Origin: Candidatus Hadarchaeum sp.
GTDB lineage: Archaea > Hadarchaeota > Hadarchaeia > Hadarchaeales > Hadarchaeaceae
Reading direction: 5' to 3'
NCBI GenBank assembly: GCA_038851515.1
Contig: JAWCKT010000002.1
Coordinates: 1 to 28,628, forward strand
DNA length: 28,628 nucleotides
Below are positions 8,523 to 26,697 of this stretch, one piece after another. The notes under the pieces were generated by a model. It worked only from the letters and a program-made list of their open reading frames with translations, did not search any database and had not been told where the DNA came from. The translations under genes and the position numbers were made by a program. Positions within the stretch are counted from its first letter, which is position 1. Every line of letters begins with the position of its first letter.

Positions 8523-8526
8523 TTTC

Positions 8527-9090
8527 TCACCCTTTCACTTCTATGAACCAATTCAAAAACTTATCTACTGCCCTAGCGCGGTGGGAAAAGAGGTTCTTTT
8601 CCGATACCGTCATCTCGGCAAATGTCCTGCCATCACCTTCGCGCGGCACAAAGATGGGATCGAAGCCAAAGCCAAGAGTTCCTCTAGCCTCCTCAGCTAT
8701 CTTACCTTCAACCCTGCCCACAAACACCATTGGTTCCTTCCCGGGCTCGCAGTACGCTACTGCCGACCTAAATTCGGCGCTACGATCGTCAAAGCCAGAT
8801 ATTAGCTTGAGGATTCCTGGATTACCGATGGTGCGAAAGATGTAGTTGGAATATGGGCCGGGAAAGCCGTTGAGGGCTTTCACGAAAAGTCCGGCATCCT
8901 CCACAAAGCAGGGTTTACTCAGCTTGATGCTGACCTCCATGACACTTGCGCGGGCTATCTCTTCAAGATCATCCGCTTGAATCTCTGGATAACGCCATTT
9001 ATAGTGAAAAACTTGAATGCCCCGCCTTCTCGCCAGCTCACTGACCTCAGCGAACTTGTGCTGATTACTAGTTACAAAGGTCAGCGCCAT
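8527..9090 (-). CDS. rdgB: Non-canonical purine NTP pyrophosphatase (RdgB/HAM1)
   Basis: FVTSNQHK, VEDAGLFVKALNGFPGPYS, GFGFDPIF and EKNLFSHRARA. Confidence 0.95.
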   Translation of the reverse strand: MALTFVTSNQHKFAEVSELARRRGIQVFHYKWRYPEIQADDLEEIARASVMEVSIKLSKPCFVEDAGLFVKALNGFPGPYSNYIFRTIGNPGILKLISGFDDRSAEFRSAVAYCEPGKEPMVFVGRVEGKIAEEARGTLGFGFDPIFVPREGDGRTFAEMTVSEKNLFSHRARAVDKFLNWFIEVKG

Positions 9091-16028: not shown

Positions 16029-18719
16029 ATGGAAATACCGAAGGACTATGATCCATTGAAAGTGGAGCCAAAGTGGCAAAAATACTGGGAAAAGTTGGGC
16101 GTTCACCGCTTCAAGCGCGATGACCTCAAAGCACCAACCTATGTCATCGATACCCCGCCGCCGTATCCGAGCGGGGAGTTTCACATGGGCACGGCGCTGA
16201 ACTGGACCTACTTCGACATCGTGGCCAGATACAAGCGAATGCGGGGCTTCAACGTCCTTTTTCCACAGGGTTGGGACTGTCACGGACTGCCCACTGAAGT
16301 CCAAGTGGAGAAAAAGTATGGAATCAGAAAGGGAGACCTTCCTGCGGAGAAATTCCGAGAACTCTGTGTGAAGTTAACCACGGAAAACATTGCCCATATG
16401 AAGGAAGAGATGAATTCCTTTGGCTTTTCCATTGACTGGACCACTGAGTACCGCACCATGGATCCCAGCTACTATGGAAAGACTCAACTCTCTTTTGTCC
16501 AGCTTTACAAAAAGGGACTGATTTACAGGGGAGAGCATCCGGTCAACTGGTGCCCGCGCTGTGAGACTGCCATAGCCGACGCTGAGGTCGAATATCAGGA
16601 GAAAAAAACCACCCTCCACTACATCAGGTTCAAGTTACTCGATGAAAAAGAAACTCTGACCATTGCCACCACCAGGCCGGAATATTTGCCCGCTTGCGTG
16701 GCCGTGGCCGTTCATCCCGATGACAAAAGATACCAAAAATACGTGGGGAAAAAGCTCGAAGTCCCGCCGCTAGGAAATTTAGTGGAAATCATCGAAGACC
16801 CAGAGGTTGACCCTCACTTTGGCACCGGCGTGGTGATGATCTGTACCTTTGGAGATAAGACCGACGTGAAGTGGGTGAAGCGTTACAAACTACCAGTCAT
16901 CAAGCTGATCGACGAAACGGGCAGGATGACCGAAGCTACAGGAAAATACTTCGGAATGACAATTGAAGGGGCTCGGAGGTCGATTGTGGAGGACCTGCGA
17001 GAGGCGGGACTGATAGAAAAACAAGAAGAATTTCCCCATGCCGTTGGCGTCTGCTGGCGCTGCAAAACACCGGTTGAAATCTTAAGCAAGCCGCAGTGGT
17101 TCATGCGCGTGCTCGCCCTGAACGACCTTGCCATCGAAGAAGCGAAAAAGATCCGGTGGGTTCCGGAACATATGCTCACTCGATTCATCGACTGGGTAAA
17201 ATCAATGGACTGGGATTGGGTAATCTCAAGGCAGAGGATCTTTGCAACACCCATCCCGGCCTGGTACTGCGCTAGCTGCCGACAACCGATAGTGGCTGAG
17301 GAAAAGCAGCTGCCAGTGAACCCGATTAAAGACCCGCCGCCGGTTAACCAGTGTCCCAACTGCGGTGGTCAAAAATTTGAACCAGAACAGGACGTTCTCG
17401 ACACATGGATGGACAGTTCAATCACCATAGCTGTCCATGCCGGCTGGCCCGATCTCGACCCAAGACTTTTCCCTGCAGACCTTCAACCGAACGGTACTGA
17501 CATTATCCGAACCTGGGACTATTATCTGATGGTCCGTCATCTGGCCCTTCTCAACAAGGCACCCTACAGGACGGTGATGATCAACGGCATGGTTCTCGGC
17601 ACTGACGGCCGAGCCATGCACAAGTCGCTGGGAAATTATGTAGATAGCAGCAAGGCACGTGATAAATACGGCGCCGACGCCCTGCGGCAATGGGCGGCAA
17701 TTGGGGCATCCACGGGCGCCGACATACCTTTCAGCTGGAAAGATGTAGAGTTCAGCTACCGTTTCTTGAGAAAATTCTGGAACGCAATCAGGTTCGCCAG
17801 CCCTCACTTGAAGCCCGAAATTATTCAACAGGACAAAAAAAAGGTTAACCTGCGTCCGATCGACCGCTGGATGCTGAGCCGAGTGAATAGGCTGGTCAAG
17901 GATATCACTGGATGGCTCGAGGACTTTCAGTTCAACCGCGCTCTCGGGGAACTGCACAACTTTGTCTGGCATGAACTCTGTGATATGTACATTGAGGAGG
18001 TAAAGTACAGGCTCTATGGAAAGGATAAAACACCAGATGGGGCCGCTTTTACCCTCGGACACGTCATGATGACAACGATAAAAATGCTGGCCCCCTTCGT
18101 CCCCCATTTCGCTGAGGAAGTTTACCAGACCTTTTTTTCCGCCATGGAAAAACAGCCCAGCATCCATCTCACCAAATGGCCCGAACCGGATGAGTCCGCC
18201 ATAGATGGGTCAGCTGAGGAACTTGGAAAAATCGTCAACAAGGTGGTCAGCGCACTGAGACAGTTTAAATCAGCTAGGAAGCTAGCGCTCAACACTGAGA
18301 TACCGGAACTGATAATTTACGCCCCAGACCAGAAGTTGCGCAAACAGCTCGAGGAAATCGTTGAAGATATTGCTGGCACGATGCAGGTGAAGGAAATTAA
18401 AATACTGTCTGAAAAACCCGAACTGGAGGAACGCCTGATCTCGATTGAGCCCAACTTCGCCAAGCTGGGATCACGTCTACGCGACGATTTAAAGGCCGTT
18501 ACCGAGGCCCTGCGCAGGACTAGTCCCACAGAGGTATCAAAACAGCTGGAAAGAGGAAAGATCGCCATAGAGATACCAAACAAGGTTATCGAACTCACCC
18601 TAGACGAACTTAAGATAACTAAAGAAACGGTTAGAAAGGGCCATCGGGTGGAAGTAATTGACTTAACCGAGCCAACGCTGACGCTGCTCCTGCCACTAGG
18701 TGGGTTTGGAAAGCAATGA
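16029..18719 (+). CDS. valS: Valyl-tRNA synthetase (archaeal type)
   Basis: DTPPPYPSGEFHMG, GWDCHGLPTE, DWVISRQR, DVLDTWMDSS and KMSKS variant AMHKS. GAGGAGGGT RBS. Confidence 0.97.
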   Translation: MEIPKDYDPLKVEPKWQKYWEKLGVHRFKRDDLKAPTYVIDTPPPYPSGEFHMGTALNWTYFDIVARYKRMRGFNVLFPQGWDCHGLPTEVQVEKKYGIRKGDLPAEKFRELCVKLTTENIAHMKEEMNSFGFSIDWTTEYRTMDPSYYGKTQLSFVQLYKKGLIYRGEHPVNWCPRCETAIADAEVEYQEKKTTLHYIRFKLLDEKETLTIATTRPEYLPACVAVAVHPDDKRYQKYVGKKLEVPPLGNLVEIIEDPEVDPHFGTGVVMICTFGDKTDVKWVKRYKLPVIKLIDETGRMTEATGKYFGMTIEGARRSIVEDLREAGLIEKQEEFPHAVGVCWRCKTPVEILSKPQWFMRVLALNDLAIEEAKKIRWVPEHMLTRFIDWVKSMDWDWVISRQRIFATPIPAWYCASCRQPIVAEEKQLPVNPIKDPPPVNQCPNCGGQKFEPEQDVLDTWMDSSITIAVHAGWPDLDPRLFPADLQPNGTDIIRTWDYYLMVRHLALLNKAPYRTVMINGMVLGTDGRAMHKSLGNYVDSSKARDKYGADALRQWAAIGASTGADIPFSWKDVEFSYRFLRKFWNAIRFASPHLKPEIIQQDKKKVNLRPIDRWMLSRVNRLVKDITGWLEDFQFNRALGELHNFVWHELCDMYIEEVKYRLYGKDKTPDGAAFTLGHVMMTTIKMLAPFVPHFAEEVYQTFFSAMEKQPSIHLTKWPEPDESAIDGSAEELGKIVNKVVSALRQFKSARKLALNTEIPELIIYAPDQKLRKQLEEIVEDIAGTMQVKEIKILSEKPELEERLISIEPNFAKLGSRLRDDLKAVTEALRRTSPTEVSKQLERGKIAIEIPNKVIELTLDELKITKETVRKGHRVEVIDLTEPTLTLLLPLGGFGKQ

Positions 18720-24034: not shown

Positions 24035-24237
24035 GATAAGTTGTTCTAGATGTTAAAAATAGCTGACTACTAAGCGCCCATCTCTTAAAAGACAAAATCA
24101 TGGCCGAGATCACCAACAAACACTGGCGATTCTGGTGACAATAATGAGTATAAATAGACGAAAAAGTTGTTGAAAAGTTTGTTAAACAAAAAGTCTAAAA
24201 TTTAAATTAAACAAAAACAAGTGAAAAGGGTGAGAAA

Positions 24238-26052
24238 ATAGCCAAGTTCTACATCACCACACCGATCTACTATATCAACTCGGTGCCTCATATCGGCCAT
24301 GCCTACACTACTGTGGTAGCTGACACCCTAGCCCGTTGGCACCGCCTGCGCGGGGATGACGTCTTCTTCCTGACGGGCTTAGATGAGAACTCCGCGAAGA
24401 CTCTAGAGGCAGCACGGGAGAAAGGATTCAAGGACATACAGTCATATGCCGACTCTATGGCGAACCTTTGGAAGGGAACCTGGAAGATGCTGGATATCAC
24501 CAACGATGATTTCATTCGGACCACTCAAGAAAGGCACCGTAAAAACGTCATCGATCTCTTCGAACGAATTAGATCCCGCGGAGACATTTACAAAGGGAGC
24601 TATGAGGGACTCTATTGTGAGGGTTGCGAGGCCTATTACACGGAGGCCGACCTTGTCGATGGAAAGTGCCCATTACATCTAACCAAACCAAAGTGGCTTC
24701 GAGAGGAGAACTACTTCTTCCGATTGTCCAAGTACGCCGATGTCCTACTGAAACACATCGAAGAAAATCCTGAGTTTATCCAGCCTGAGGCGCGTCGGAA
24801 TGAGGTCATCAACTTCATAAAACAGGGTTTGAAAGACGTGAGTGTCACGAGGCAAAACCAGCAGTGGGGAATAGATGTGCCCGGTGAACCCGGGCAGAAG
24901 ATTTGGGTTTGGTTTGATGCCCTAACCAACTATTTACTACCGAAGCGGTACTGGCCAGCTGATGTCCATGTCATCGCCAAAGACATCATCAGGTTCCACT
25001 GCGTCATTTGGCCGAGCATGCTGCTCTCCGCCGGACTTGAACTCCCTAAGAAGATCTTCGCCCATGGGTTTCTCACCGTCGAGGGACAGAAGATCAGCAA
25101 ATCCCTAGGCAACGTCATCGACCCCGCTTACTTGGTGGAAAAGTACTCAGCCGATGTCGTCAGATACTTCCTAATTCGGGAGATCTCCTTTGGACAGGAC
25201 GGGAACTTCTCCGAGGCCAGCCTTGAAGCCAGGCTGAACGACGAGTTGGCCGATATCCTCGGCAACTTTGTCCACCGCGTACTAACCTTTATCCGTGATC
25301 GCTACAACTCCAAATTACCTGACGGAAAAGTCGACGAAAAGTTTGAGGAGGAAGTCAAAAAACGCGTGGCCAAAATAGAACAGCTAATGCTGGATCTTAA
25401 AATTTCTCAGGCGCTCGAAGAGATCATGGCGATAGCTCGGCGGGGCAATGAGTATTTCCAAGCTTGTAAACCTTGGGAAACCCTGAAGAGAGATAAGGAA
25501 AAGGCTGCTGGTTGTATTCTCACCTGCGCCAACCTAGTGAAAATTTTGTGCGTGGCCCTAACTCCGTTCATGCCATCAACGGCAACTAAGCTTGCCCGCC
25601 AACTGGCCATCGAGGTAACGAGCTGGGATCAGGCAAAGTCTTTTGACCTCAGCCTTGGCCATCAGATTGGTGAGCCGATGGCGCTCTTTACGAAGGTAAA
25701 GTCAAACAACGCAGAAAAACACGAAAGCAAACTAATCTCCATTGATGAATTCGGCAAACTCGACATCAGGATTGGTCGCATCGTTGGCGCTGAAATTATC
25801 CCGAAATCAAAAAGATTGCTCAAGCTGGATGTGGACCTCGGAAAGGATAGGCGGACGATCGTTGCCGGCATAGCGGAAAAATACTCACCCGAATCCCTAG
25901 TGGGGAAAAACATCGCCGTGGTGGTAAACCTCGAGCCCGCAAAGTTGATGGGTGTAACCTCTGAGGGGATGCTTCTGGCCGCCGAGGATGAAAATGGTGT
26001 TTCCATTCTCGTGACCGACCGGCCAGTGCAACCGGGCTCGAAGGTGAGATAG
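24238..26052 (+). CDS. metG: Methionyl-tRNA synthetase, bacterial-type short-CP form with C-terminal tRNA-binding OB domain; apparent ATA start
   Basis: (M)AKFYITTPIYYINSVPHIGHAYTT, YCEGCEAYY/CPLH, VWFDALTNY, KDIIRFH, KISKS and C-terminal DIRIGRI/SEGMLL. There is no ATG/GTG/TTG in frame between TAA 24208-24210 and GTG 24283. Confidence 0.95.
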   Translation: MAKFYITTPIYYINSVPHIGHAYTTVVADTLARWHRLRGDDVFFLTGLDENSAKTLEAAREKGFKDIQSYADSMANLWKGTWKMLDITNDDFIRTTQERHRKNVIDLFERIRSRGDIYKGSYEGLYCEGCEAYYTEADLVDGKCPLHLTKPKWLREENYFFRLSKYADVLLKHIEENPEFIQPEARRNEVINFIKQGLKDVSVTRQNQQWGIDVPGEPGQKIWVWFDALTNYLLPKRYWPADVHVIAKDIIRFHCVIWPSMLLSAGLELPKKIFAHGFLTVEGQKISKSLGNVIDPAYLVEKYSADVVRYFLIREISFGQDGNFSEASLEARLNDELADILGNFVHRVLTFIRDRYNSKLPDGKVDEKFEEEVKKRVAKIEQLMLDLKISQALEEIMAIARRGNEYFQACKPWETLKRDKEKAAGCILTCANLVKILCVALTPFMPSTATKLARQLAIEVTSWDQAKSFDLSLGHQIGEPMALFTKVKSNNAEKHESKLISIDEFGKLDIRIGRIVGAEIIPKSKRLLKLDVDLGKDRRTIVAGIAEKYSPESLVGKNIAVVVNLEPAKLMGVTSEGMLLAAEDENGVSILVTDRPVQPGSKVR

Positions 26053-26697
26053 TTGCTGCAGCTCGACCTCCACGTGCATACAAAATATTCATACGATGGC
26101 ACCTGCTCGGTCGAGGAAGCTGTCGAAGTCGCCAAGGCAAAGGGACTGAACGGCATAGCGATAACGGACCACGACAACATCTCCGGGCATGTGGAAGCTA
26201 AAAAAATAAGCAAGGACGGTTTCCTCGTCATCCCCGGTGTTGAGATATCCAGCGCTCACGGACATATCGTGGGATTGGGAATTAATGAACTGATACCGAA
26301 AGGCTTGTCAGCGGTAGAAACCGTCGAGCTAATCCGGGCGCAGGGGGGAATCGCCATTGCTGCTCATCCCTTTGCCCCAGGCAGACATCCGGAACTCGTC
26401 TACAGGGCCAAATTTGATGCGATCGAGTGCCTTAACTCCCGAGCCATTCTCCTCAGCAACCCGCTGGCACAGAAATTTGCTCGGAAAAATGGGTTAACGA
26501 TGGTGGCCGGATCCGATGCTCACCGCTGCGATGACGTCGGGATGGCCTACACATTGGTGGATTGTGATTTGAATCTTGAAACAATATTGGAAAAAATAAG
26601 GCGGGGAGGGACATCCATCGAGGGGCGGACCCTCCCTTTGCCAAGCTTCATGTGGAGGGTTCTCCAGAAGGCCCTCCAGCGAAGACATGAGCGCTAG
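26053..26697 (+). CDS. PHP domain metal-dependent phosphoesterase
   Basis: DLHVHT, AITDHD, PGVEIS, GHI, AHPF and AGSDAH. The TTG start directly follows the metG stop, with a GGTGA RBS. Confidence 0.9.
   Translation: MLQLDLHVHTKYSYDGTCSVEEAVEVAKAKGLNGIAITDHDNISGHVEAKKISKDGFLVIPGVEISSAHGHIVGLGINELIPKGLSAVETVELIRAQGGIAIAAHPFAPGRHPELVYRAKFDAIECLNSRAILLSNPLAQKFARKNGLTMVAGSDAHRCDDVGMAYTLVDCDLNLETILEKIRRGGTSIEGRTLPLPSFMWRVLQKALQRRHER

Follow-up and report, generated by a model that had tools for sequence, protein, structure and literature searches.

From which codon is a gene translated when the first strand of its protein lies upstream of every ATG, GTG and TTG of the frame? This question is raised by metG, which encodes methionyl-tRNA synthetase (MetRS), in a stretch of 28,628 nucleotides of Candidatus Hadarchaeum DNA (the whole stretch analysed, hereafter the window). 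A sequence-only reading of the window had proposed that metG initiates at an ATA codon. Our analysis indicates that metG is very likely an intact, functional gene with the ATA at 24238-24240 as its initiation codon. The metagenome-assembled genome (MAG; G000) of which the window is contig 2 comprises 1.03 Mb at 72% completeness, and its closest public genomes are Candidatus Hadarchaeum MAGs. These relatives, an archaeal-type S15 and an archaeal 16S rRNA in the assembly mark the host as archaeal. Archaea accept GUG and UUG as start codons, and other start codons have been little studied in them (PMC4705826).

Results

Reading frame and product of metG

The elements of the metG locus to which the argument refers are the following (positions in the window):
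24208-24210, plus strand: TAA, in-frame stop that closes the metG frame upstream
24228-24233, plus strand: GGGTGA, Shine-Dalgarno (SD)-like, with GGTGA at -9 to -5, complementary to the 16S rRNA 3' end
24238-24240, plus strand: ATA, putative metG initiation codon, with no canonical start between the TAA and the conserved N-terminus
24238-26052, plus strand: metG, methionyl-tRNA synthetase, 604 codons and a TAG stop (26050-26052)
24283-24285, plus strand: GTG, first canonical in-frame start, which encodes the Val of VPHIGH, has no SD before it and is not the real start
24289-24300, plus strand: HIGH motif, residues 18-21
25090-25104, plus strand: KISKS motif, residues 285-289, the KMSKS signature of class Ia aminoacyl-tRNA synthetases
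25765-26043, plus strand: C-terminal tRNA_bind domain (PF01588; Trbp111/EMAP-like, optional in MetRS)

Between the TAA and the ATA stand nine in-frame codons (ACA, AAA, ACA, AGT, GAA, AAG, GGT, GAG and AAA), none of which is ATG, GTG or TTG. The ATA is directly followed by AKFYITTPIYYINS (24241-24282) and then by VPHIGH, so that the first Rossmann strand, AKFYITTPIYY (24241-24273), is encoded upstream of the GTG. The sequence-only reading had described the frame in this way, and both its account of the missing canonical start and its placement of the strand directly after the ATA proved exact. An open-reading-frame (ORF) listing of the window yields only the 589-aa GTG form of the protein. The same arrangement, a stretch free of ATG, GTG and TTG from the upstream stop to the N-terminus, was found in six further loci (L114-L118 and L013). 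Judged from the reading frame, ATA thus appears to be the only sensible initiation point for metG.

The protein read from ATA has a complete MetRS architecture, with the class Ia catalytic domain (PF09334, E 7e-98) and its HIGH and KMSKS-type motifs, the MetRS anticodon-binding domain (PF19303, residues 363-499) and the tRNA_bind domain (PF01588, residues 510-602). Residues 2-486 align to the MetRS of Aquifex aeolicus (2csx, E 1e-135), residue 2 standing opposite 2csx residue 5. Because this alignment begins at residue 2, the 15 codons before the GTG at 24283 belong to the catalytic fold.

Ribosome-binding site

The 3' end of the 16S rRNA reads GATCACCTCCT and is complementary to the SD core at metG. 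Among 605 genes of the genome with unambiguous starts, G-G-G-G-T-G-A is enriched at -11 to -5, which places GGTGA at -9 to -5. The ATA begins 4 nt past GGTGA, the modal and optimal SD spacing of the genome, and the SD is kept as GGTG(A/G) among relatives. The ATA thus has the spacing expected of a start codon, with the qualification that the transcription start, known by prediction only, may fall within or after the SD.

The sequence-only reading had also pointed to a likeness between the metG leader and that of rpsO, a second gene in the window:
8523-8540, minus strand: AAGTGAAAGGGTGAGAAA, ribosome-binding region of rpsO (archaeal S15), before the ATG at 8522-8520

The near-identity and the equal spacing from GGGTGA to the start are borne out: the 19 nt before the ATA (24219-24237) differ from the 18 nt before the rpsO ATG (8540-8523, minus strand) by one extra A only. 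In the 1.03-Mb assembly an exact 10-mer shared by the two leaders and followed by AT(A/G) stands ahead of a long open frame only at metG and rpsO; a third copy of the 10-mer, on contig C30, precedes an ATC, and the frame there has 7 codons. The meaning of the likeness has to be corrected, since most of it consists of the common SD and an A-rich spacer. A common regulatory element was considered and rejected, as the two leaders share 8 nt beyond SD and spacer, and these are coding at rpsO. We regard the likeness as mostly coincidence. At rpsO the SD overlaps the stop of the upstream gene (8527-9090), whose TGA lies within GGTGA 4 nt before the ATG; because of this overlap the motif is contained in an mRNA, where it serves as an SD. 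The embedding of the TGA in the rpsO GGTGA (8523-8529, minus strand) is also an instance of compact stop-in-SD coupling.

Conservation of the start codon in close relatives

The 5' ends of metG were aligned among 40 related species-level genomes, in all of which the gene was found (40/40). ATA stands at the start column in the window's genome, in G001 (97% protein identity) and in G006 (88%). Elsewhere this column holds ATG (G002, G003, G005, G007, G014 and others) or GTG (G004), at exactly the position of the ATA and behind the same layout of TATA element and SD. G001 is a RefSeq-accessioned Candidatus Hadarchaeum sp. MAG (isolate DRTY-6_201901_bins_47) and G006 is isolate KM4338-48; going by the isolate names alone, the two point to different projects. 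A private mutation or assembly error, with ATG in all close relatives, was the refutation that the sequence-only reading had named for itself, and these two genomes contradict it. A metagenome scan with the leader and a start of any third base recovered two Candidatus Hadarchaeum yellowstonense-like contigs, both with ATG, and no additional ATA.

The first 40 codons of metG show 9 synonymous and 0 non-synonymous changes relative to G001, and 13 synonymous and 1 non-synonymous relative to G006; within codons 2-15 every change in both comparisons is synonymous. Since the changes are almost all synonymous, this N-terminal region is translated and under purifying selection. Moreover, NCBI annotates the G006 protein with 604 aa beginning MAKFY, that is, with the ATA start in use. 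Its translation table 11 allows ATA, ATC, ATT and CTG as rare initiators, and the G006 orthologue was annotated in this way, so that the ATA start is already implicit in one NCBI annotation.

Near-cognate starts at metG in other Hadarchaeales

For six close homologues in the protein database the called start lies downstream of the true N-terminus: at the GTG of VPHIGH in five (589 aa) and further in, at MADIIARW (574 aa), in one, P0082. At the start column the DNA of these homologues has non-canonical codons. ACG is found in four contigs, each from a different assembly (L114-L117), behind AAAGGTG(G/A)G and with an upstream in-frame stop. In a more distant contig (L118, 57% identity) the column holds ATA, preceded by GGAGG, and the 41 codons that follow the stop include no canonical one. 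CTG is found in two distinct genomes (G008/L240 and L239), and G008 has no canonical start after the upstream stop.

In a tree of 137 sequences, the ATA of Hadarchaeum, the CTG, the ACG and the second ATA are placed in separate, well-supported clades interspersed with canonical-start sequences, which implies at least four independent origins. ACG was counted as one origin. The ACG contigs have an upstream region of a single type, also present in L243, a sister contig with ATG. The coding region of L114 is nearly identical to that of the ATG-type L241 and L242; its promoter, leader and ACG start match L115-L117. A conservation of the near-cognate start throughout the family, as for infC, was not found, and most metG genes of the Hadarchaeales have ATG.

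Several observations concern the history of the gene rather than its start. The MetRS of the window is bacterial-like, with its best solved match in Aquifex (2csx) and about 45% identity to many Bacillota enzymes. An N-terminal variant, FFITTAIDYP, occurs in several genomes of the same order (loci L017-L030), and in G009 and G011 the N-terminal and main parts of MetRS appear as separate matches. The history of metG in the order may, on these sequences, include replacement or transfer.

Start codons elsewhere in the genomes

As controls, the N-termini of ValRS, aRF1, S-adenosylhomocysteinase (SAHH) and Kae1 were searched in the same 41 genomes. ATG, GTG or TTG stands at the start column or at most 2 codons from it in 30/30 loci of each gene (120/120 in total). 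The near-cognate phenomenon is thus concentrated at metG, a pattern that we regard as suggestive. Among database homologues of ValRS (n=91), none with an intact N-terminus lacks a start. Clipped ValRS entries were considered as hidden non-canonical starts and dismissed: of two that were checked, one was a miscall with an ATG upstream and the other a frame break.

An SD-guided scan of about 960 ORFs in the window's genome gave about three strong near-cognate cases, namely the ATA of metG and two CTG codons:
C71:1212-2450 (L247:313): DUF1116-like gene, CTG 4 nt past AGGAGGTGA, with TTG at this column in the G009 and G013 orthologues
C74:1613-1957 (L248): zinc-ribbon membrane protein, CTG behind GGGGAGGTGA; the first canonical start would remove both zinc ribbons

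Both CTG codons stand behind perfect SDs and are likely near-cognate starts, as far as sequence can tell. In the same genome, scans for near-cognate codons after SD-like words showed no overall enrichment over other codons, and a lineage-wide laxity of start selection was rejected on this ground. The loss of a fidelity factor can be set aside, as SUI1/aIF1 is present in 25/25 genomes searched (in the window's genome on contig C40). No tRNA-Met was among the 19 tRNAs that ARAGORN found in this incomplete MAG, and a search of relatives with an initiator anticodon-arm pattern found no tRNA. An altered initiator tRNA is implausible, since ATG, GTG or TTG serves as the start in at least 99% of genes.

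The first ~150 codons of valS are split in several relatives into three frame pieces by two short insertions, one after TPPPY and one after FPQG, before WDCHGLPTE; gene callers then clip the protein. The split loci are:
L269 (JGI Ga0592794_0002160), ~268-771
G004:C61:33891-34546
G021:C82:1712-2368
G022:C50:3334-3980

Small introns, programmed frameshifts, assembly errors or decay may account for these splits. The valS of the window (16029-18719) is intact.

Promoter, leader and downstream gene

Two further features flank the metG start and stop:
24201-24208, plus strand: TTTAAATT, TATA-box-like and probable metG promoter, with an A-rich BRE-like stretch upstream
26053-26697, plus strand: PHP-domain gene, TTG start on the base after the metG stop, conserved downstream partner

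The first T of the TTTAAAT element lies at -37 from the metG start column, and about 20 relatives have the same element at -38 to -36, including those with a diverged sequence between TATA and start. Throughout the window's genome TATA-like words peak about 35-38 nt upstream of starts, for genes with and without a recognisable SD alike, which implies that very short 5' leaders (about 6-10 nt) would be the norm in this archaeon. Given canonical archaeal TATA spacing, the metG transcript is predicted to have a leader of about 6-10 nt.

The metG 5' region has no Rfam match at E <= 1, and the start region folds no better than shuffled sequence (z = -0.26). Relatives do not share a base pairing that is predicted between the SD and AUCACC in codons 6-7. 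A riboswitch, leader RNA or structure at the metG start was rejected on these three results. A conserved NTG at -17 was likewise rejected as the start of an upstream ORF, because its frame and stop differ between ATA and ATG genomes.

At the other end of the gene, a GGTGA inside metG lies 5 nt upstream of the TTG of the PHP-domain gene (window 26043-26055). The same PHP gene follows metG in distant relatives (L115-L117 and L241-L242), an arrangement that suggests that the two may form a translationally coupled operon.

Discussion

Probable initiation at ATA and its consequences

In a mechanism consistent with these data, the 30S subunit would be placed by pairing of GGGTGA with the 16S rRNA 3' end, and initiator Met-tRNA (anticodon CAU) would pair with AUA except at the third codon base, a single mismatch. 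Synthesis would then begin with Met-Ala-Lys-Phe-Tyr, and initiation would be much weaker than at AUG. In E. coli reporters AUA initiates at ~1-2% of AUG, and CUG belongs to the same near-cognate class (bioRxiv 10.1101/063800), which makes a weak but non-zero ATA start plausible. The ATA arose from ATG by one transition and has persisted through speciation in one Hadarchaeum sub-clade. Because ACG, CTG and ATA arose independently at the same column in other Hadarchaeales lineages, these data suggest that MetRS synthesis can undergo a strong reduction, or that a different level provides buffering. A weak start at metG would in that case be tolerated, or mildly favoured as a crude low-expression setting.

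Several points weigh against initiation at ATA or against its wider interpretation. The case is sequence-based and the host is uncultured. The predicted transcription start at -10 to -6 may leave the SD partly or wholly outside the mRNA, and a non-AUG codon is expected to work poorly on an mRNA with a very short leader; the position of the predicted transcript 5' end relative to the SD is the main uncertainty on mechanism. The E. coli measurements of all 64 codons were made in a bacterium with artificial reporters and so do not give the efficiency of AUA in an archaeon, whereas metG is a natural essential gene. No second metG was seen in the three Hadarchaeum genomes with ATA, of which that of the window is only 72% complete. 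As for the recurrence, L114 may have arisen by recombination at the conserved metG 5' end, or may be a chimeric contig. The excess at metG is no more than suggestive, being based on at least four events, four control genes and related, non-independent genomes.

Alternative explanations

A different reading accepts the start and gives it a purpose. It holds that the near-cognate start is an adaptive feedback that couples MetRS synthesis to the supply of Met-tRNAi or to initiation stringency, as the AUU of infC does with IF3, and we consider it unlikely. It gains from the near-cognate codons at metG in at least four lineages, set against none in the four control genes, and from the persistence of ATA across species. 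Initiator-tRNA depletion in bacteria lets elongator tRNAs initiate at non-AUG codons; such initiation at metG under initiator scarcity would give the feedback the correct sign, which is speculative. If the initiator tRNA itself decodes the codon, scarcity of Met-tRNAi would lower AUA initiation, and the simple loop would have the wrong sign, because a near-cognate is expected to react more sharply than AUG when initiator tRNA runs short. Moreover, most relatives have ATG, so that such control is not a conserved feature of metG, and MetRS is not a start-codon fidelity factor; to our knowledge it has no role in start-codon discrimination or stringency. AUA, ACG and CUG are also single-step mutants of AUG, the same set that tolerated decay would be expected to give. 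The broader proposal, that metG of the Hadarchaeales has repeatedly been driven to AUA, ACG and CUG and that MetRS synthesis is thereby coupled to initiator-tRNA charging or to aIF1/aIF2 stringency, is doubtful in our view.

Recoding in place of initiation at ATA can be envisaged in two versions. Translation would begin at an out-of-frame GTG (24230 or 24221) and reach the metG frame by a -1 slip on A-AAA before the TAG at 24239-24241 or by termination-reinitiation, or else the AUA would be edited to an AUG-like codon. Indeed, in the three ATA genomes ATA and the next G form a TAG that closes a mini-frame of 4 to 7 codons from those GTGs. G001, however, reads AGA-AGA-TAG, which is not slippery, the GTG at 24230 lies within the SD, and nothing of the kind is present in the ACG and CTG lineages. 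With a 5' region that neither matches Rfam nor folds better than shuffled sequence, recoding appears highly improbable.

It is just as hard to uphold a start at the GTG at 24283, which would give the 589-aa enzyme without its first beta strand that automatic gene callers predict. This GTG is the first canonical codon of the frame, and five database proteins are called there (P0082 further in). On the other side, it has no SD upstream, it encodes the residue before HIGH that every homologue conserves as Val or Ala, and the 15 codons upstream of it are under purifying selection and align to solved MetRS structures. Such a start is very improbable.

Finally, an artefact or decay (a sequencing or assembly error at A 24240, a private mutation, or a metG pseudogene) would need only one base from ATG in a MAG of 72% completeness, but it is for practical purposes excluded by the same ATA in two other species-level assemblies, by the intact 604-codon frame with HIGH and KISKS, by the purely synonymous changes in codons 2-15 and by the search for a second metG in G000, G001 and G006, which found none.

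Significance and comparison with known systems

Initiation of metG at ATA would have a practical consequence for annotation. Gene callers that accept only ATG, GTG and TTG clip at least 15 residues, core beta strand included, from MetRS in at least eight assemblies, that of the window among them. An essential enzyme thereby appears defective, which calls for homology-aware start calling. The N-terminal peptide predicted from the ATA start is (M)AKFYITTPIYYINSVPHIGH. In Archaea, where initiation factors are similar to those of eukaryotes, essential genes with AUA, ACG or CUG as their sole natural start are poorly documented. The locus is thus a natural test case for start-codon stringency in archaea and for the question whether the start codon can serve to set, or sense, synthetase levels. 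If the near-cognate starts are only tolerated decay, MetRS supply would be far from limiting, or buffered, in these small-genome thermophiles. If the coupling to initiator-tRNA supply were true, it would be the first start-codon homeostatic loop in Archaea and the first for an aminoacyl-tRNA synthetase.

A close likeness is to E. coli infC, which encodes IF3. Both are essential translation genes with a third-position near-cognate codon behind a normal SD that was retained in evolution. The AUU of infC is broadly conserved, and discrimination against it by IF3 itself creates a negative feedback. By contrast, metG encodes an aminoacyl-tRNA synthetase, its host belongs to the Archaea, which have aIF1 and aIF2 and no IF3, and most of its relatives have ATG. 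The sequence-only reading had invoked infC as a precedent: this stands for a near-cognate start behind an SD, and the bacterial IF3 mechanism does not carry over directly to the archaeal host. As start-codon fidelity there would depend on aIF1 and aIF2, infC serves as an analogy only.

Among synthetase genes, yeast ALA1 starts at ACG and GRS1 at UUG. These non-AUG starts lie upstream of an AUG and give a second, mitochondrial isoform by leaky scanning. The likeness to metG lies in near-cognate starts, ACG included, of synthetase genes; in metG the near-cognate codon would be the only start, giving the only isoform, and would be positioned by an SD. In eukaryotes, eIF1 and eIF5 autoregulate through poor start context (PMC3326321), and the amount of an initiation component is thereby tied to how stringently start sites are chosen. 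Here the likeness is that aIF1 is the archaeal homologue of eIF1, and the difference is that the eukaryotic loop acts on the fidelity factors themselves. Compared with these systems, metG would be an archaeal addition to the known class of genes with non-canonical starts, and what it adds is the recurrent, apparently gene-specific pattern.

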